Shown: piece after piece, positions 9,281 to 28,224 of the stretch
How positions within the stretch are numbered: position 1 is the first letter of the stretch
How the letters are laid out: each line of letters begins with the position of its first letter
DNA from: an uncultured Thermus sp.
Lineage (GTDB): Bacteria > Deinococcota > Deinococci > Deinococcales > Thermaceae
Direction: 5' to 3'
DNA length: 29,438 nt
Assembly (NCBI GenBank): GCA_947085095.1
Contig: CAMTVD010000003.1
Location: forward strand, 1 to 29,438
Made by a program: the position numbers and the translations under genes
Notes under the pieces: model-generated
Told to the model about the DNA's origin: nothing
The model's input: only the letters and a program-made list of their open reading frames with translations
The model's database searches: none

Positions 9281-9525
9281 GGGTCCTCGGGCGGGCGGAA
9301 GAGGCGCTAGCGCATCTCGCGGAGGCGGTGGGGTACTACTGCCCCCCTGAGCTGGTCCTCGAGGCTGAGCGGTGGCTGGATGACTTGCGGGAGGCGCTTA
9401 GGGAGGGCGCGGAAGCGAGCCGGGCGCTAGAGGCGTGCCGCGCCCGGGAGCGCCTGTCATCCCAGGAGCGGTTGCGGCTCAAGGAGGCTGTCATTAAGGC
9501 GCGGGAGATTTTGGAGCGGATATGA
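9277..9525 (+). CDS. Hypothetical protein
   Basis: GGAGG RBS, ATGA overlaps, helical charged sequence (MRVLGRAEEALAHL…). Confidence 0.6.
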   Translation: MRVLGRAEEALAHLAEAVGYYCPPELVLEAERWLDDLREALREGAEASRALEACRARERLSSQERLRLKEAVIKAREILERI

Positions 9526-9692
9526 CCCTGGCGGATCTGCTTTTGGCCTACGTTCTCGCCACGCTCACGGGGCTCGCTGTCCTGCTTCGCCCTCGCCGCG
9601 AGCCCCTGCCGGAGGGGGCGAGCGTGGGGTTTTTGGTTCTCGTGGGGGTTTTATGGCTAATGTTCTTCCTCGCGCTCGTTCTGTGGCGCTAG
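9522..9692 (+). CDS. 56-aa two-transmembrane protein (absent from the ORF track)
   Basis: MTLADLLLAYVLATLTGLAVLLRPRREPLPEGASVGFLVLVGVLWLMFFLALVLWR*. GGAG RBS and ATGA coupling with the upstream gene. Confidence 0.65.
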   Translation: MTLADLLLAYVLATLTGLAVLLRPRREPLPEGASVGFLVLVGVLWLMFFLALVLWR

Positions 9693-10033
9693 AGGCCACT
9701 CTTCCATGGCCGCCCTCGGTGAACCACTACTGGGCGGCCAGGGGGAATGGCCGCTACCTCTCCCCCCACGCCCAGCGGTGGCACAAGGAGGCGTGGGCCA
9801 CCCTGCGCGCCGCGTGGCGCGGGAAGCCCATGCGGGGGGAGGTGGCGGTGCTCGTCGTCCTTCATCCCCCGGACCGGAGGAGGCGGGACCTGGACAACAT
9901 CCTGAAGGCGGTCCTGGACGCGCTCGTGCACGCGGGGGTGCTCCAGGACGACTCCCAGGTGGCGGAGCTTCACGCCGTGCGGCGAGAGGCGCGCCGTCCT
10001 GGACGGGTGGAGATACGGGTGGAGAGATTCTGA
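9653..10033 (+). CDS. rusA: RusA-family Holliday junction resolvase
   Basis: LPWPPSVNHYW, PPDRRRRDLDNILKAVLDAL and DDSQV motifs. True start may be GTG 9683. Confidence 0.93.
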   Translation: MANVLPRARSVALEATLPWPPSVNHYWAARGNGRYLSPHAQRWHKEAWATLRAAWRGKPMRGEVAVLVVLHPPDRRRRDLDNILKAVLDALVHAGVLQDDSQVAELHAVRREARRPGRVEIRVERF

Positions 10034-10200
10034 CATCCTCCCCGTTCTGAAGAACGGGGGCTCCTACACGGAGCTTGCGAGGTTGGAGTCTGCATGAGCC
10101 GAAGCCCATACCTTTACCCCATCCAGCCCCTCCTCTACGGGAGGAGCCTGTCCGGGTTGCCCCAGACGGGCCGTGTCAGGCGGCCCATAGCGCAGCAGTC
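10030..10200 (-). ncRNA. omegaRNA (reRNA)-like scaffold at the element right end; 5' boundary approximate
   Basis: Consecutive minus-strand hairpins GGGCCG/CGGCCC (10186-10168), GTCTGGG-GCAA-CCCGGAC (10167-10150), CTCCTC/GAGGAG (10146-10130) and GTATGGGC-TTCG-GCTCATGC (10111-10092), with GNRA/UUCG tetraloops and G-U pairs, abutting the right end. Confidence 0.62.
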
Positions 10201-10386
10201 CAGCCGCTACGCCAATGCACTTGTTATCCCGGTACGCCGTGGCAAGGCCGTCACAGACGGTAGGCGTGGGGTTGCCGTGCATGGCAAAACTGTAGCACAT
10301 CAGCGGATGGACGTGCTACACCGAGCTTCGCTCGGCTTTCGCTTCCTTCCCGGTTTGAAAACCGGGGCATCCGCGGAAGGAGTTTT
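10030..10386 (-). mobile_element. Non-autonomous IS200/IS605-family miniature element (no tnpA, tnpB deleted)
   Basis: On the minus strand: target TCAC (10390-10387), left guide GATG plus hairpin CCCGGTTT-TC-AAACCGGG (10366-10349), right guide GAGC plus hairpin CCCCGTTCT-TC-AGAACGGGG (10059-10040), then AGGATG and the TCAG end. Both guides predict their cleavage tetranucleotides under the IS608 pairing rule. Composition differs from the flanks. Confidence 0.88.
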
Positions 10387-10568
10387 GTGACCCTCACGGG
10401 CCGGGAGGTCCAATCCCTCCCGGCACCGAGGTACCGGCCCAAATCGGGAGTTTCCGGTCTCCCTGACCAAAACCGGCCCCCCAACAAAATCTTGGGGTGA
10501 ACACCGCTTCCCCCAGGCGCTCGGAGGGCCGGGGGCGCCTGAGGAGGGGCGGGTAGGAGGAGGTGGAA

Positions 10569-11051
10569 GTGTCTAGGAAGTGCACCATCTGCACCCACCC
10601 CCAGCGGGCGGAGATAGACCGAGAGCTCGCAGAAGGGAGGTCTATCCGAGACATAGCGAGACGCTATAGCGTTTCACGCCCTTCCCTTCACCGCCACCGC
10701 ACGCACGTCCAGGACGCTGTTCAACGGGCGGTTGAAGCCAAGGCGGTCCAGGTCGGCGTGTCCGTTTTGGACCGCATCAGGGAGCTGAACCGCGAGGCCC
10801 GCGCCCTTCTGGAAGAAGCTCGCTCAAAGGGACGCTACGCGGCGGCGGTCCAGGCGATTGGGGCGGCTACCAGGCTTTTGGAACTAGAGGCCAAGCTCCT
10901 CGGGGAGCTAGACGAGCGTCCCAGCGTCCAGGTGGCGCTGGTGGCGAGCCCGGAGTGGGCCCGGCTGAGGGCGGTGGTCCTCGAGGCCCTGGCCCCCTAC
11001 CCCGAGGCCAGGGCCGCCCTGGTGGAACGTCTGGAGGCGGAGGGTGCGTGA
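10569..11051 (+). CDS. Terminase small subunit
   Basis: CTICTHPQRAEIDRELAEGRSIRDIARRYSVSRPSLHRH (Zn/HTH) then coiled coil. Strong GGAGGAGG RBS. Directly upstream of the large subunit. Confidence 0.8.
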   Translation: MSRKCTICTHPQRAEIDRELAEGRSIRDIARRYSVSRPSLHRHRTHVQDAVQRAVEAKAVQVGVSVLDRIRELNREARALLEEARSKGRYAAAVQAIGAATRLLELEAKLLGELDERPSVQVALVASPEWARLRAVVLEALAPYPEARAALVERLEAEGA

Positions 11052-21853: not shown

Positions 21854-24329
21854 CCGCCTGCAGTGGATCTTTGAGCTTCGCGCCCAGGTTGCCGGGCTCA
21901 CCGCCGCCGTCAGACAGGTGCGGGAGTTCCAGCGGGCGGTGGTGGGGGCTACCTCCGCCGCCCGCGCGGCCAGCGCGGGCATAGGGGCGGAGTTCAGGGA
22001 GACGGGCTACGCCGCCCGCTCCCTCTCCCTGGCCCTGGCAGGGGTGGGGGCGGCCCGAGGAGGGTTCGCGGCCCTGGCCTCCGGGGCGGCCAGGGCCAGG
22101 GCGGAGATGGCCGCCCTCTCCTCCAGCGTTTTCAACCTCCGCAACCTCCTCATCGCCGGGACGGCGGGGTACGGGGCCAAGCTCGTCCTGGACGCGGTTT
22201 CGTTTAAGGAGAACACCCTCATCGCCTTCCAGACGCTTTTGGGCAGCCGCGAGGAGGCGGAGCGGATGATGCGGGAGGCGGTCAGGTTCGCCGCCGGCAC
22301 CCCCTTTGAGACCCGGGACGTCATTGACGCGTACCAGCGTTTGCTGACCGACCGCTTCAAGCCGGCGGAAATCCCGGTGGTGCTCAAGGCCGTGGGCGAC
22401 CTGGCCGCTCTGAAGGGGTTCAGCAAGGAGATCATTGACCGAGCGCTCCGCGCCATCGGGCAAATCCGGGCCAAAGAGCGGTTGCAGGGCGAGGAGCTAG
22501 ATCAGCTGGCCGAAGCCGGGGTGTCTCGCGGCAAGGTCTACGAGGTGATCGCGAAAAGGATCGGGAGGACGACCGATGAGGTGCGCAAACTGCAGGAAGC
22601 GGGGCGCATATCCGCTGACCTGGGCGTCGTGGCGGTCCTGGAAACCATACGCGATACCATTTCCGGCGGGCAGCTGGGGAAGCTCATGGACCTCACGAGC
22701 CGGTCCATCTCCGGGCTGTGGTCCACGCTCCGCTCCCGGCCCACGGAGCTCCTAATGGACATCAACGTTGACCCCGTGCGCAACGTGTTGGCTAACCTGG
22801 TAGCCCTCACCGACCCCGACACCCCTAGCCGCACGGGGCAGCGGTTAAAGGCCATGCTGGAGCGCTACATCGGCGGGGCGTTTAGGGGCGTGTTTGGTAG
22901 CCTCGCCGACGCTACCGACCCCTCGAGGGCCGAAGCCAACCTGAACCGCTTCCTGGACAGCGTGGAGCGCACGATTGCCCGGGTGAGCCTGGCGTGGCAG
23001 CGCATCCGCCCCGCCATCGTGGAGACGTGGCGCGGGGTCATGGACGGCATCCGAGCCGCTCAAAGCGTGGCCCAAACCGTGGCCCCCGTTCTAAACGCCG
23101 TGGCCCAAGCGCTAGGGGGCACTGCGGGCGGCATGGAGGCTTCCACCGTTTCTGGCTTCCGGCTCATCGGCATGGGCATCGCCTTGGCCGGAGCGTGGCG
23201 GCTTCTCAACCTCCTCACCCTGGGCATGGCGGGAAGCGTGGTGCGCTGGGGTGGGCTATCGGTGCTGTGGTTTGGCCGTGTGGCGTTGGCCGCCATGCGC
23301 TACGCCGTGGCCCACCGAGCCGCCATGATGGCCGCGGCCTCCAGCATGGGGCCCATGCTGGCCCGCTTGGGCATGGGGGCGCTAACCATCCTCCGGCTGG
23401 CCACCCCCTGGGGGCTGGTGGCTACGGCGGCGGCGTTTGCCGTGGGCTACATCATCCGCAACTGGGACAAGATCAGGGGATTCTTCGCCAACCTATGGGC
23501 GTCCGTCTCCGGCGCGGCTTCGGCGGCCTGGCAAGGGGTCGTGGCCTGGGCGAGCGGGGCGTGGTCCTCCGTGGTGGCGGCGGTTTCCGGGGCGTGGGGG
23601 AGGATCACCGAGGCCGTCTCCAACGCCTGGGCCGCCCTCCGCGAGCGCGTTTCTAGCGCCGCGGGGAGGGTGCGGGAAGCCCTCTCGTCCCTCTACCGGG
23701 GAGTGGTGGGGTGGTTTAGGAACCTCCCCGACCGCATCGTGGAGGCCGTGCGTGGGGCGGGGAGCCGCTTCGTGGAGGGCCTGCGGGAGATCGTCCGGCG
23801 CGCCCCTGGCGGGGACCTCCTCCTCCGGGCGCTGGACGCGGCGGGGAACGTGGCCCGCCAGGCGTGGGAGTGGGGGAAAGGCGTGGCCCGGGCTATTGGG
23901 GGCGGGGCCAGAGAGGGGCTCGGCATCCGTTCCCCCTCGCGGGTGTTCGCCCACATCGGAGCCATGACGGCCCTTGGCCTCGCCGTGGGCCTGCAGAACG
24001 CTGCGCCTATGGTGGAGCGGGCCACCCAAACGCTGCTCCAGGCGACGCAGGTGGCTCCCACGATAGAGGCCGCCATCAGACTGCCGGAGGTCGCGCCTAC
24101 TCTCCGCTCGCCCGAGGCTCCCCCGCCCCCTCCCGCTCCTCTCCTCCCCGCCGTGACCGCGCTAGCTCCTACGACCAGAGAAACCGTGGTCCATATCCAC
24201 GTGAACGGGGCGCGGGACCCGCGGGAGGTGGCCCGCGAGGTGGTGGCGGCCATAGACCACTGGGCGGCGGGGCGCATCGTGGTCCTGGGCCTCGAGGCCC
24301 TGGCCTCGGAGGTGGGCCATGACGCATGA
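21846..24329 (+). CDS. Tail tape measure protein
   Basis: 827 aa, Ala-rich. FAAGTPFE…LKAVGDLAA…IGQIRAK…GEELDQLAEAG domain, Trp-periodic repeats, LGIRSPSRVF motif. Confidence 0.95.
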   Translation: MDNRLQWIFELRAQVAGLTAAVRQVREFQRAVVGATSAARAASAGIGAEFRETGYAARSLSLALAGVGAARGGFAALASGAARARAEMAALSSSVFNLRNLLIAGTAGYGAKLVLDAVSFKENTLIAFQTLLGSREEAERMMREAVRFAAGTPFETRDVIDAYQRLLTDRFKPAEIPVVLKAVGDLAALKGFSKEIIDRALRAIGQIRAKERLQGEELDQLAEAGVSRGKVYEVIAKRIGRTTDEVRKLQEAGRISADLGVVAVLETIRDTISGGQLGKLMDLTSRSISGLWSTLRSRPTELLMDINVDPVRNVLANLVALTDPDTPSRTGQRLKAMLERYIGGAFRGVFGSLADATDPSRAEANLNRFLDSVERTIARVSLAWQRIRPAIVETWRGVMDGIRAAQSVAQTVAPVLNAVAQALGGTAGGMEASTVSGFRLIGMGIALAGAWRLLNLLTLGMAGSVVRWGGLSVLWFGRVALAAMRYAVAHRAAMMAAASSMGPMLARLGMGALTILRLATPWGLVATAAAFAVGYIIRNWDKIRGFFANLWASVSGAASAAWQGVVAWASGAWSSVVAAVSGAWGRITEAVSNAWAALRERVSSAAGRVREALSSLYRGVVGWFRNLPDRIVEAVRGAGSRFVEGLREIVRRAPGGDLLLRALDAAGNVARQAWEWGKGVARAIGGGAREGLGIRSPSRVFAHIGAMTALGLAVGLQNAAPMVERATQTLLQATQVAPTIEAAIRLPEVAPTLRSPEAPPPPPAPLLPAVTALAPTTRETVVHIHVNGARDPREVAREVVAAIDHWAAGRIVVLGLEALASEVGHDA

Positions 24330-24867
24330 CGAGCTCGTCATCGTGGGCCCTAGCCGCTGGCGCATCGCCCCCGACCCCAAGGCGGACATCGTGGGGCAGG
24401 TGCGGGTGAGCGTGCGAGGCGGGGGCCTGCGCGAGTCCACCGTGGAGGTGCCGGGGCAGGACGGGGTGGTGTCCACGAAGCTCGGCTATTCCCCGGCGGA
24501 GGTCACGGTGGAGGTACGCGTGGCCGACCTCGGCCAGCTAGACCGCATCCGGCGCTTCGCCGAGGTCTACCGCAACCGGCGCGGGGCGGAGAAGCACACC
24601 CCCGTCCAGCTCGTCCACCCCGCCACGCACCGCTGGGGCATCCGGGAGGTCTACCTGGTGGACCTGGAGGAGGCCCCCCTGGACTGGAGGGAGGGGTATC
24701 GGCTCACCCTCCGCTTCCAGGAGTGGTGGCCGGAGACGAGGACGAAAAAGGCCGCCAAGCAGCAGGGCAGCGGCGCCGGAGGCGGGGACGGGCTCCTCGG
24801 TCAGGGCGCGAGCATCCTGGAGGTGGACCGCCCCTCTAAGGCTCCCCCGCCTCCGCCTAAGAGGTAG
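24319..24867 (+). CDS. Putative tail tube initiator/baseplate protein
   Basis: Immediately after the tape measure gene, GGAGG RBS, beta-rich. Confidence 0.55.
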   Translation: MTHDELVIVGPSRWRIAPDPKADIVGQVRVSVRGGGLRESTVEVPGQDGVVSTKLGYSPAEVTVEVRVADLGQLDRIRRFAEVYRNRRGAEKHTPVQLVHPATHRWGIREVYLVDLEEAPLDWREGYRLTLRFQEWWPETRTKKAAKQQGSGAGGGDGLLGQGASILEVDRPSKAPPPPPKR

Positions 24868-24869
24868 CT

Positions 24870-25541
24870 ATGGCGAGCTTCATCCTTGGGAATGACCCCA
24901 TCGCCACCGGAGAGGTGGTGCGGCCCTACCCCGGACGGGCCCACGCCACCCTCCTCCTCGGGGTCCCTCACGGGGAGCACTCCGTAACCGAAGGGGCGCG
25001 GGCGCCCCTGCGCCTTCTACATGACGACGTGGAGCTCGTCCTCCATGGCACGCCCGTCCAGATCATGCGCACCCCGGACGGCTGGCCCCTGGTGCGCTGG
25101 GTGGCCGGGGCGGGCACCCTCCACCGCGTCCTGCGCCCCCGCTACTACCAGGGCGTGCCCGCCCGCCTGGTGGCGGAAGACGCCCTGAAGGAGGTAGGGG
25201 AGAAGCCTGGGGCGCTGGACCTGCCCAGCGTCCTCAGGGTCTGGGTCCGCCACGCCGAGAGCGCCTACCGGCTCCTCTGGCGGCTGGCGGAAAGGGAGGG
25301 GCGGGCGATCTACGTGGGCGAGGACGGAAAGGTCCACGCGGAGCGCCCCGAGTGGCCCAAGGGCCCCGAGGTGCCCGGGGCGAAAGCCCTCGGCCCCGGG
25401 GCGTACCTAGCCCCCATGGACCTCTCCCTCCGCCCGGGCGCGGAGGCCACCCTCTGGCTAGGTGGGGTGCGGGTGCCCGTCCGGGTGAGCCGAATCGTCT
25501 ATCGGCTGGAGAAGGCCACGATGGAGGTGTGGCGTGCGTGA
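24870..25541 (+). CDS. Putative baseplate hub protein
   Basis: ESAYRLLWRLAEREG resembles the gpD/gp44 hub motif. Precedes the spike gene. Confidence 0.6.
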   Translation: MASFILGNDPIATGEVVRPYPGRAHATLLLGVPHGEHSVTEGARAPLRLLHDDVELVLHGTPVQIMRTPDGWPLVRWVAGAGTLHRVLRPRYYQGVPARLVAEDALKEVGEKPGALDLPSVLRVWVRHAESAYRLLWRLAEREGRAIYVGEDGKVHAERPEWPKGPEVPGAKALGPGAYLAPMDLSLRPGAEATLWLGGVRVPVRVSRIVYRLEKATMEVWRA

Positions 25542-26028
25542 GCGAGCCGTTCGCGCTCTGAAGGCCCTCGCCTCCGAGGGCATAGACTTCCTCGCCCTCT
25601 ACCCGGCGGAGGTCCTCCTGGACCACGGGGACATGCACCTGGACCTCCGCCCGGACGACCCGCGCTTCCCTCACCTCGTCCGGGTGCCCCTGCGCGTGTT
25701 CCTCCCCGGGGCGTACGTGCGGGTCAAATCGGGTAGCCGGGTACTCCTCGGGTTTGAGGGGGGAAACCCTGAGCGCCCCGTGGCCTACCTGTGGGAGGCC
25801 GGGGGAACGGTGGTGGTAGAGATCCGCTCCGTGTCTGGCCGCCGGGTCCGGGTGGACGACGAAGCGGGAGAGATCCGGGTGGAGGACCCCGTCCGGGTCG
25901 TGGTGGACGCCCCCCAAATCCTCCTTGCCGGGGGCGGCCCCCCTGTGGCCCGGGTGGGGGACCCGGTGCAGGTGGGGGCGGCTGTGGGCCAGATAATCGG
26001 CGGCAGTTCCAAGGTCTTTTCGGGGTGA
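25534..26028 (+). CDS. Baseplate spike (gpV/gp45-like)
   Basis: GSRVLLGFEGGNPERP OB-fold motif; C-terminal VARVGDPV…GQIIGGSSKV. Confidence 0.82.
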   Translation: MRERAVRALKALASEGIDFLALYPAEVLLDHGDMHLDLRPDDPRFPHLVRVPLRVFLPGAYVRVKSGSRVLLGFEGGNPERPVAYLWEAGGTVVVEIRSVSGRRVRVDDEAGEIRVEDPVRVVVDAPQILLAGGGPPVARVGDPVQVGAAVGQIIGGSSKVFSG

Positions 26029-26031
26029 ACC

Positions 26032-26409
26032 ATGACCGACTTCGGGACCGACATCACTGAAGAGCTGACCTGGCGCCGGGTCTCCGGCCTGGAGAACCTG
26101 GCCCGGGCCATCGCCCGCCGCTACATCACCCCGAGGGGGGCGCTCTGGTACGCCCCGGGGTACGGGCTGGACCTGCGGCGCTACTTGAACGAGGCCATGA
26201 CCCCAGAGCTCCTGGAGGAGATGCGCATCCTGGTGGAGCAGGAGGCCGAGAAGGACCCCCGGGTGCGCTTCGCCGAGGCCCGCGTGGCCCCAGAACCGGA
26301 CCACCGCGTGCGGGTGGCCCTGCGCTTGGAGACGGACCAAGGGCCCTTTGACCTGGTCCTCAGCGTGGACCGGGTGAGCGTGGAGGTGCTGAATGCCTAC
26401 CCTGGATGA
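26032..26409 (+). CDS. Baseplate wedge protein (gpW/gp25-like)
   Basis: VSGLENLARAIARRYITPRGAL…YG…DPRV. Confidence 0.82.
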   Translation: MTDFGTDITEELTWRRVSGLENLARAIARRYITPRGALWYAPGYGLDLRRYLNEAMTPELLEEMRILVEQEAEKDPRVRFAEARVAPEPDHRVRVALRLETDQGPFDLVLSVDRVSVEVLNAYPG

Positions 26410-27493
26410 GCTCCTGACTCCGCCCTCGCGGGACCAGCTGCGCCAGCGCCTCATAGAGGCCCTGCGGGACATGGGTTTTCCCCTCAACGATTTCAACCCA
26501 GGTGCGGTGGGGCGGCACGTGGCCGTGGAAGCCCCGGCCCTGGGGCTGGAGGACCTGTGGCGCATGGTGGCAGCCATCGCCCGGGGGGGCTACCTCTCCA
26601 CCGCGTCCGGCCCGTGGCTGGACCTCCTGGCAGAGGAGTTCTATGCTCTTAAGCGGAAGCCCGCCGCCTTTACCTGTGGCGTGGTGCGCCTCTCCGCCCT
26701 GCCGGGGTTCGGTCCCTATGAGATCGGCCCCGGGGACCTCTGGGTGGGGACGGCGGACGGGAAGCGCTACAGCAACATCACGGGCGGCACCCTCCCCCAA
26801 GGGGGCACCCTGGACCTCATCGTCCAGGCGGAGTCCCCTGGGGCCAGCTACAACGTCCCGGACGGGGCCATCACCGTCCTCCACACCCCCCTGCCGGGAG
26901 TGAGCGTGGTGAATCCCGCGGGGTGGCTCGTGGAGGCGGGGGCGGACGAGGAGACAGACGAGAAGCTACGGGCCAGGTGCTGGGCGCGCTGGGCGGAGCT
27001 CGGGGGCGGGGCCACGAAAGCGGCCTACGAGTACTGGGCCCTCACCGCTCACCCCAGCGTGACGAAGGTGCGGATACTGGACGACCACCCCAGGGGTCAG
27101 GGGACTGTGGACGTGGTCATCTGGGGGGAGGGGGGTATCGGGAGCGAGGTGGTGGGCGTCGTGGACGCCTATGTCCAGGCCCGCAGGCCGCTCACGGCGA
27201 ACGTCCTGGTCTATGCCGCTACCCCGCGCGTGGTGGCCCTCTCAGGCGTGGTCTACGCCGTTCCCGGAGCCCTCACCCAGGCTCAGGCGGCGGTGGACCG
27301 GGAACTCGCCGCCATGCAAAGGGAGGTTCCGATCGGTGGCATCCTCTACCGCAGCCGGATCATTGAAGCTCTCTTCGCCCGTCCCCATGTGACCAATGTG
27401 GTGCTCTCCAGCCCCACCGGAGACATCGCCCTGGGGACCACAGAGGCCCTGGTGCTGGACGCTAGCGGGATCAGCTACGAGGAGGCGGCATGA
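26393..27493 (+). CDS. Baseplate J-like protein
   Basis: TASGPWLD, AESPGASYN, GADEETDEKLRAR, AYEYWA and RGQGTVDV. Confidence 0.93.
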   Translation: MPTLDELLTPPSRDQLRQRLIEALRDMGFPLNDFNPGAVGRHVAVEAPALGLEDLWRMVAAIARGGYLSTASGPWLDLLAEEFYALKRKPAAFTCGVVRLSALPGFGPYEIGPGDLWVGTADGKRYSNITGGTLPQGGTLDLIVQAESPGASYNVPDGAITVLHTPLPGVSVVNPAGWLVEAGADEETDEKLRARCWARWAELGGGATKAAYEYWALTAHPSVTKVRILDDHPRGQGTVDVVIWGEGGIGSEVVGVVDAYVQARRPLTANVLVYAATPRVVALSGVVYAVPGALTQAQAAVDRELAAMQREVPIGGILYRSRIIEALFARPHVTNVVLSSPTGDIALGTTEALVLDASGISYEEAA

Positions 27494-28224
27494 GCTACGA
27501 GGAGTGGATGGAGAAGGCCCAACCCCCCTGGCTCCAAAACGAGGCTGGGCGGCGCTGGGCCAGGGCGCTCGGGCGCGTCCTGGACGGGGCAGTGGACGGA
27601 GCACGGGACGCCGTGCTGGCCCGCTACCCCAGCTATGCCCCTGAGGACGCCCTAAACCTCGTTGGGGAGGGCCGCGCCCTCCGCCGCTTCCCCCCCGACG
27701 AGCCGGACGCCTTCTACCGGGAGCGCGTCCGGCACGCCTGGGACTGGTGGCTCCGGGCGGGGACGAAGCCCGGCATGGAGGCCGAGCTCGCCCGCCTCGG
27801 CTTCCACGCCAGGGTAATAGAGGGACCCTTTGAAACCTACTTTGACGGCGCCTGGCGCTTTGGGGACTACGAGGGCGCTTTCACGGGCCCTGCCTGGGCG
27901 GAGTTCATTTTGGAGGTCAGTCCAGCGGGGCCCTGGACCGCGCGGGAGCGGGCCTACCTGCGCCACGCGGTCCAGGAGCTCAAGCCCGCCCACGCGGTCC
28001 TGCGGGAGGTGCGCCTCCTCCTCCAGGACGGGCGCGTCCTGCGCCTCGCCGCCCTCCCGGCGGGAGAGGTCTGGGACCTCGGGCGCTTTGGGGAGTTCTA
28101 CTTCGGCGAGGTCCTGGAGGGGGCGTGGGCGGCGGGGCTCGGCGGGGCCGCGTGGCTGGACTCCCGGCGGCTGGAAGGAGGGGTGTTTGATGGGGAGTGG
28201 AGTTTCGGCGAGCGTGGTTTCTAG
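27490..28224 (+). CDS. Baseplate wedge/tail protein (P2 gpI-like)
   Basis: FYRERVRHAWDWWLRAGTKPGM, WAEF and ELKPAH. Follows gpJ. Confidence 0.82.
   Translation: MSYEEWMEKAQPPWLQNEAGRRWARALGRVLDGAVDGARDAVLARYPSYAPEDALNLVGEGRALRRFPPDEPDAFYRERVRHAWDWWLRAGTKPGMEAELARLGFHARVIEGPFETYFDGAWRFGDYEGAFTGPAWAEFILEVSPAGPWTARERAYLRHAVQELKPAHAVLREVRLLLQDGRVLRLAALPAGEVWDLGRFGEFYFGEVLEGAWAAGLGGAAWLDSRRLEGGVFDGEWSFGERGF

Follow-up and report, generated by a model that had tools for sequence, protein, structure and literature searches.

A protein-less, PATE-like IS200/IS605 derivative with a predicted omegaRNA on the rusA stop codon of a Riverbug-like Thermus phage

In the genome of an uncultured Thermus sp. 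(GCA_947085095.1), a 357-bp element without a protein gene occupies positions 10030-10386, minus strand, of a 29,438-nt stretch that makes up the entire contig G000:C3 (CAMTVD010000003.1); this whole stretch is called the window here. The element is very probably a non-autonomous, PATE-like derivative of TnpB-only IS200/IS605 elements, and a dormant passenger in this genome. Toward its right end it carries a predicted omegaRNA, and the DNA beyond that end would supply a guide against the uninterrupted version of the same locus. An earlier note, made from the letters of the window, had proposed that a phage could use this RNA to program a TnpB of its host against element-free relatives. The parent genome has 2.08 Mb in 41 contigs and is 93% complete; it is probably a metagenomic bin, because the window stretch occurs in metagenome runs that are possibly its source.

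Insertion boundaries and empty sites

Alignment of the window with Thermus phage Riverbug (L030) and with a prophage on contig G007:C1 of another genome of the genus (L020) delimits an insertion of exactly 357 bp, 10030-10386 on the minus strand, and both relatives show a gap of precisely that span, as the earlier note had expected. The uninterrupted site is found in Riverbug, in the G007 prophage and in two metagenome contigs (L198 and L200), where it reads ...GAGAGATT followed by GTGA and CCCTCACGG; the Riverbug and G007 alleles read GGTGGAGAGATT, GTGA and CCCTCACGGG. TCAC occurs once per empty site in all four (...ATT-GTGA-CCC on the plus strand), and the element was inserted without target-site duplication. 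This TCAC, at 10387-10390 on the minus strand of the window and single in the Riverbug and G007 empty sites, is the target and putative transposon-adjacent motif (TAM). L198 and L200 came from a metagenome scan with a junction pattern that matched 13 contigs; these two belong to related phages and both are empty, and the other 11 of the 13 are unrelated DNA and were discarded as chance matches. Apart from the window and the runs that are possibly its source, in which the allele is filled, every relative found is empty. Contigs of X5, an unrelated hot-spring run, join across the element, from 10002 to 10385 with 25 Riverbug-like letters between and from 10024 to 10391; at 88% likeness, and with sides of 36 and 30 letters, these joints lend weak support. 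Contigs drop rare variants, so that X3, a possible source run for which no contig joining across the element is listed, says nothing on excision.

On the plus strand the TCAC reads GTGA and contains the original TGA stop of rusA (9653-10033, plus strand, 126 amino acids; Pfam RusA, E = 4.9e-20, with the reading of its end taken from comparison with the empty alleles). Because the TCAG of the element's right end places CTGA where GTGA stood, the gene keeps its TGA stop, and its last codon changes from TTG to TTC (Leu to Phe). The insertion thus leaves rusA almost unchanged, which would explain why the phage tolerates the element.

The omegaRNA scaffold

The segment 10030-10215 on the minus strand is predicted to encode an omegaRNA scaffold of nine helices that ends at the transposon right end, as judged from Rfam, from a covariance model (R1) and from RNAalifold. 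The Rfam family HgcC (RF00062) matches 10017-10188 on the minus strand with 55.9 bits against a cut-off of 50 (E = 1.2e-11), spans model positions 1-130 of 130 and contains an 80-nt insertion, which indicates that this bacterial lineage has extra helices. All other Rfam hits in 9500-11000 lie far below their cut-offs, and elsewhere in the same genome HgcC gives weak matches of at most 21.5 bits; both sets were disregarded. As a single sequence, the window RNA has a fold z-score of -4.9; taken with the E-value of the HgcC match, this makes a chance match untenable.

From an alignment of six copies, RNAalifold derives a consensus with nine helices and 63 pairs; compensatory changes affect 9 of these pairs. 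The window keeps 62 of the 63, the exception being a C-A at a loop-closing pair, and no helix is missing by comparison with full-length relatives. The right-hand stems bear GCAA and UUCG loops, in agreement with the GNRA- and UUCG-capped hairpins that the earlier note had described near the right end. The model R1, built from the six-copy alignment, detects the RNA in 21 of 68 genomes from the taxonomic family, with 26 matches of which 21 are distinct. Across these, 97.4% of cells are paired and 31 of the 63 pairs change on both sides, in a 21-sequence alignment that was fitted to the R1 model and so favours the structure; none of 500 shuffles reaches 31/63, and slid controls give 7-14. The window scores 212.5 bits with R1, an intact copy in genome G002 scores 220.5, and intact copies range from 139.6 to 222.9. 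R1 matches extend as far as the right end, and share sequence with a TnpB frame of about 400 amino acids, in G002, in genome G018 and in nine more distinct insertions. By these comparisons, the predicted scaffold is complete in the window.

Sequences of the family also occur in two RNA-library runs. Short contigs of X16, which comes from another habitat, are identical to window 10030-10076, 10142-10196 and 10167-10215, and X15 contains pieces of a G002-like full-length element; contigs of this kind are no proof of transcription, strand or ends, and the depth and uncovered parts in X15 and X16 are not expression levels. In the X16 contigs, sequencing-adapter letters stand some 6 nt past the right end and, on the other side, immediately upstream of about 10215. 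A discrete RNA of about 190 nt, made from a mini-type copy, would agree with these positions; this is a lead only, since contigs cannot set RNA ends.

Full-length parents and a family of mini-elements

A search of 32 genomes of the genus located both halves of the element, with 1.1 kb between them, on contigs G002:C29 and G018:C34. The G002 copy is 95% identical to the window over 10030-10197 and 86% over 10291-10390. Both copies are TnpB-only elements, of 1368 and 1386 bp with TnpB proteins of 415 and 407 amino acids, respectively. Full-length relatives share a left junction in which TCAC is followed by AAAACTCC... and a right end ...GGATGTCAG, and their flanks are unrelated. The G002 and G018 insertions are also present in records of Thermus altitudinis and T. 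scotoductus DSM 8553, and further full-length copies were found in Meiothermus records. As read from these alignments, the window element is a deletion derivative of TnpB-only IS200/IS605 (IS1341-type) elements: it retains the left end, the TGnTACAGT motif, the tnpB start codon, a decayed C-terminal piece and everything thence to the right end, and about 325 tnpB codons are missing.

The window copy belongs to a larger set. Fourteen of the 26 R1 matches (11 distinct insertions) have a TnpB frame of near-whole length, the frame of L161 being split, and the remainder include protein-less copies. Two of these, L170 (G065:C8) and L169 (G050:C171), have a window-like architecture with the same deletion and the same middle sequence. 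Identity to the window is 92.4% over 357 bp for L170, 88.7% for L169, 90% for L189 and 81% for L188. The mini copies of 352-357 bp (L169, L188, L189 and L170, which is the same locus as L190) each have different flanks after TCAC, and TCAC precedes the left end in every copy whose left end is visible, namely the window, G002, G018, L169, L170, L188 and L189. L173 and L156, also minis, have diverged further and have extra hairpins. Mini and full-length copies are found together in G050, G065 and G033, as is described for PATEs and standalone omegaRNAs, and the mini-element also occurs in Meiothermus-like genomes. Since the same mini-element stands at other sites, in chromosomes and on other contigs, it is a mobile PATE family and no invention of the phage; the phage device envisaged by the earlier note does not agree with this distribution. 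A separate 188-nt contig of X3 has the same 30-nt right end (10030-10059) with another flank, so that another element with this end exists in the community; none is present in the bin.

The position on a stop codon recurs in the family. Seven of the 20 distinct insertions adjoin an opposite-strand frame that ends in the CTGA of the element and is open for at least 97 codons, and six of these seven frames have coding-like third-position GC (the exception is L188). The element thus lies exactly on the TGA stop of a convergent gene, and its TCAG end regenerates the stop. By a rough, uncomputed estimate, survivorship of neutral insertions could explain this placement without special targeting.

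Element ends and internal parts

The ends are asymmetric, with subterminal hairpins and no terminal inverted repeats, and both hairpins are conserved in relatives. The left end (10348-10386, minus strand), delimited from the sequence, the alignments and the geometry of IS608, comprises a 19-nt spacer (10386-10368) that ends in the DNA guide GATG (10371-10368), followed by the hairpin CCCCGGTT-TTCA-AACCGGGA (10367-10348). The foot pair of this hairpin is lost, the element strand having A at 10348 where L170, G002 and other relatives have G. Contigs of X5 and X15 have the alternative base there. A second left-end hairpin, CCGAGC-GAA-GCTCGG (10321-10335, minus strand), is kept, with changes, in relatives. 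The right end (10030-10063, minus strand), delimited from the sequence and the relatives' alignments, has the DNA guide GAGC (10063-10060), the hairpin CCCCGTTC-TTCA-GAACGGGG (10059-10040), AGGATG and the cleavage motif TCAG (10033-10030). Its 30-nt pattern has exact matches at seven loci in genome contigs and at one IMG/VR locus. The combinations GATG/TCAC and GAGC/TCAG would fit the pairing scheme of IS608 as reconstructed here; the motifs are identical in all copies, so that no covariation is seen between them. Both hairpins, both guides and both cleavage motifs had been listed in the earlier note, and all are read in the sequence at the expected positions with IS608 spacings.

The same note had pointed to an extended -10, and such a motif, TGcTACAGT (TGCTACAGT), is present at 10289-10297 on the minus strand and at the same position in relatives, as TGcCACAAT in G002, TGgTATACT in G018 and TGCTACA(G/A)T in L170 and L169. 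Because a generic scan for two-hexamer sigma-70 promoters found 0 sites, the argument for a promoter is this conserved -10-like motif only, and its activity is a prediction. The motif lies about 7 nt ahead of an ATG (10282-10280) that is the former tnpB start, so that a transcript may be leaderless. From this ATG runs an in-frame tnpB remnant (10064-10282, minus strand), in which the start codon is fused to the decayed C-terminal part; tblastn with the protein P0001 matches residues 367-414 at 83% identity and residues 329-414 at 51%, and the remnant is probably no gene. The only long frame inside the element (10064-10300, 78 amino acids) comprises this remnant and has no Pfam hit, and neither tnpA nor tnpB was found within the element, in keeping with the earlier description.

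Guide, target and available nucleases

According to Meers et al. (PMC10055086), the guide of an omegaRNA is the DNA flanking the right end. By this rule, the would-be guide of the window element is AAUCUCUCCACCCGUAUCUC (10010-10029, minus strand), antisense of the last rusA codons. As the guide is the flank beyond the right end in every IS605-type element, it points at the element's own empty site. The match to the empty rusA 3′ end next to TCAC that the earlier note had anticipated is found: the guide agrees with the G007 allele at 20 of 20 positions and with Riverbug-type alleles over the first 14 nt. When TCAC plus 16 nt was tested, it occurred exactly in G007 and nowhere else among the 32 genomes of the genus. 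The right junction of the window reads TCAG plus target and is one base from TCAC plus target, and Meers et al. describe only minor differences between TAM and transposon-encoded motif (TEM) in their elements (PMC10055086). Immunity of the element's own split site, stated in the earlier note, is an assumption.

The host-encoded TnpB on which that note relied was not encountered. The genome of the window (93% complete, in 41 contigs) has no PF07282, PF01385 (TnpB) or PF01797 (Y1 TnpA) match, within the limits of a bin from which repeats may drop out and in which binning is no proof of host assignment; a search of it with the G002 TnpB matches only the remnant, and both the element and its right end are present as a single copy. 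With one copy and no TnpB or Y1 TnpA, the data give no ground for claiming that the element moves or that its guide is used in this host. The lost foot pair of the left hairpin might, moreover, weaken recognition by TnpA. TnpB fragments stand at contig ends in other draft genomes, and none does so in this one. TnpB homologues occur in 21 of the 31 other genomes of the genus, cognate ones (at least 79% identity) in 2 of the 31, and Y1 TnpA (PF01797) in 7 of the 31 and in 31 of the 67 other genomes of the family. In G007, which bears the perfect target, both the omegaRNA family and a cognate TnpB are lacking.

Copies in other phages

A scan of IMG/VR with a 24-nt pattern of the omegaRNA core matched four contigs, and all four copies are protein-less. 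No cognate-family TnpB was found on these four records, which are fragments with CheckV completeness of 29-87%. L188 is a 357-bp mini-element in a phage with flanks homologous to window 24189-25963 and 26032-27586; judged by this homology, the phage is a relative of the window phage and carries the element at another site. L190 is the L170 locus and has the IMG/VR class provirus, and the contig of L189 carries three TnpB genes that belong to other families and share 31-41% identity with the G002 protein. L061 (the L187 contig; IMGVR_UViG_3300045107_000622) contains at 1616-2472 a 5′-truncated tnpB remnant with a 145-amino-acid frame and a complete omegaRNA (HgcC, 57.9 bits), and no left end was found there. 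TnpB homologues as such are common in phages, with 210 phage records at E ≤ 1e-10.

The window also holds the empty site of the L188 copy (1718-2074), on whose minus strand TTCAC is followed by CCCGAAAAG...; it is the GTGA at 26025-26028, the stop of the open reading frame (ORF) 25534-26028. The window phage and the L188 phage are each filled where the other is empty. Beyond the motif, 9 nt of the L188 flank match the window, and the two then differ.

In L061 the right end abuts the 3′ end of that contig's rusA, in the orientation seen in the window, and its rusA and omegaRNA are colinear with window 9695-10214 at 72%, the phage contig being more distant. A single ancient insertion giving rise to both was considered and rejected, as the two differ by 17 nt in the distance from rusA to the right end and also in codon phase. 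L061, whose junction lies 17 nt farther down rusA and in a different phase, looks like an independent insertion. Positions 2587-2764 of L061 match the 3′ regions of other Thermus TnpB elements.

Proposed history and rival explanations

In the favoured reading, a Y1 TnpA from elsewhere would have inserted the element in the form of single-stranded DNA on the 3′ side of a bottom-strand TCAC, exactly at the GTGA stop of rusA in a Riverbug-like temperate Thermus phage. The element retains the cis-acting parts required of its kind: both subterminal hairpins with their DNA guides, a promoter-like motif and the complete omegaRNA. In a cell with a cognate TnpB, the RNA could load that protein and cut element-free sites, with retention or homing as the outcome, and in a cell with a cognate TnpA the element could move; transcription, TnpB loading and cleavage are inferred. 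Because neither TnpB nor TnpA was found in the bin, a dormant passenger is the most likely state here. The element might instead be a dead relic that is drifting and would be unusable even with TnpA and TnpB present. The single copy without partners in the bin, the lost foot pair of the left hairpin, the C-A at a loop-closing scaffold pair and the failure to find a two-hexamer promoter are consistent with such decay. However, with 62 of 63 scaffold pairs intact, an R1 score among those of intact copies, no loss in either cleavage motif or either DNA guide and 92% identity to other copies of the mini family, we regard a relic as unlikely, though not negligibly so.

Little credence can be given to a benefit for the phage, in which the guide-only element would program a host TnpB to cut element-free sibling phages or prophages in the manner of homing endonucleases. 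The scaffold is intact, the G007 prophage offers a perfect target (TCAC plus 20 nt; 14 nt in Riverbug-type alleles), the four IMG/VR copies are all protein-less and one of them sits at another site in a related phage, and the provirus-borne mini of G065 (L190/L170) shares its genome with a full-length TnpB element of the family. Yet the bin has no TnpB of any family, the cognate protein is limited to 2 of the 31 other genomes of the genus and is lacking in target-bearing G007, and the occurrence of the same element in non-phage contexts means that it is not phage-specific. Any IS605 element targets its empty site as a matter of course, without selection having to act on the phage; among the relatives found, the filled allele is confined to the window and its possible source runs, and self-immunity would hang on the single-base difference between TAM and TEM. 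In a host that has TnpB the mechanism could work, as illustrated by the provirus of G065, and there is no sign of selection for it. It is likewise improbable that guide-only minis ride temperate phages as a split gene drive. If this were true, a phage entering a cell with a cognate TnpB would bring an omegaRNA that directs the cutting of element-free copies of the same phage; the targets, whether siblings in a co-infection or prophages already resident (the G007 allele, for example), would be converted or eliminated, and the drive would spread the element between Thermus and Meiothermus. Such a drive would agree with the protein-less state of all four IMG/VR copies, with the mini at another site in a related phage and with the provirus copy that shares its genome with a full-length TnpB element. 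Hardly credible at all is a local role, in which the right-end transcript would act as a cis-antisense RNA on the 3′ end of the rusA mRNA or the hairpins would form a bidirectional terminator between early and packaging genes. The element is convergent with rusA and its guide segment is complementary to the rusA mRNA, and on the viral contig L061, too, a remnant with an omegaRNA adjoins rusA in this orientation, but close relatives lack the element, the family inserts at many unrelated sites and the element strand has no T-run terminator.

Comparison with known systems

PATE-like protein-less IS200/IS605 elements with omegaRNAs, for which TnpB is needed in trans, are described from Geobacillus stearothermophilus by Meers et al. 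(PMC10055086), and standalone omegaRNAs are said to act in trans with compatible effectors in the introduction of PMC10691335, citing Altae-Tran 2021. The window element resembles these systems in the absence of a protein gene, in its IS605-type ends, in a right-end omegaRNA with a flank-derived guide, in a dependence on TnpA and TnpB of other copies and in the presence of several copies at different TAM sites. Unlike them, it belongs to a Thermaceae TnpB lineage with a putative TAM TCAC and TEM TCAG, and the window copy lies in a temperate phage, in a bin that shows no effector.

IS608 of Helicobacter pylori is the paradigm of single-strand 'peel and paste' transposition (PMC3201880). As outlined in that source, its target tetranucleotide stands 19 nt 5′ of the left hairpin foot and its cleavage falls 10 nt 3′ of the right foot, with 4-nt DNA guides 5′ of each hairpin and scarless insertion without target duplication; the window element is alike in all these respects. 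The two differ in gene content and motifs, as IS608 has tnpA and tnpB with TTAC/TCAA, whereas the window element has no gene and TCAC/TCAG. The right guide of IS608 is GAAT.

An RNA of the HgcC type has also been placed at the end of such elements, in that Gomes-Filho et al. (2015; PMC4615843) link HgcC to Halobacterium sotRNAs at the 3′ end of an IS1341-type tnpB and to a PATE-derived RNA. The window RNA is similar in its full-length match above the model cut-off, in a right-end hairpin with a UUCA tetraloop and in its overlap with the tnpB 3′ end, but HgcC was defined in archaea before omegaRNAs were known. Phages are also known to carry tnpB elements of their own, such as ISH12 in the Halobacterium phages phiH and ChaoS9 and a 'transposase' in Thermus phage MN1, and phage homing endonucleases are described in a review as serving in competition (PMC13565253). 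The likeness to the window lies in a mobile element on a phage whose nuclease would cut the element-free allele; however, those elements carry the nuclease gene, whereas the window has only a guide RNA, for which the host would have to supply the nuclease.

Protein-less omegaRNA elements and their need for TnpB in trans are already published, and the present case adds little new biology. It does provide a clean natural case of an IS605 derivative that carries only a guide RNA, with filled and empty alleles defined to the base, in a thermophilic phage-host system that can be cultivated (the host of Riverbug is T. thermophilus HB8), so that trans-use of omegaRNAs, discrimination between TCAC and TCAG, and RNA-guided homing between phages are directly testable. 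The finding also points to a thermostable TnpB/omegaRNA pair.

Phage context and neighboring features

By gene content and alignments, the contig belongs to a temperate Thermus phage or prophage of the Riverbug kind. Its genes include those for an S24 repressor, a UvrD-type helicase, a DUF4326 protein, RusA (9653-10033, plus strand) and the large terminase, and it is about 90-92% identical to Riverbug (PQ109080.1) across structural and packaging genes. A search of IMG/VR for related phages by way of RusA returned only distant RusA genes, with 40-49% identity at 79 loci, which were set aside. The complement of the left end, GGAAGGAGTTTT, was considered as a ribosome-binding site for a GTG-initiated ORF at 10387-10500 and was dropped, the 37-amino-acid frame being without evidence as a gene. 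Just downstream of the insertion site, at 10401-10423 on the plus strand, the window has a hairpin, CCGGGAGG-(loop)-CCTCCCGG, which is kept in Riverbug (CCGGTGGG ... CCCACCGG) despite changes on both arms. With rusA on one side of it and the packaging genes on the other, this hairpin may serve as a terminator or a regulatory stem.

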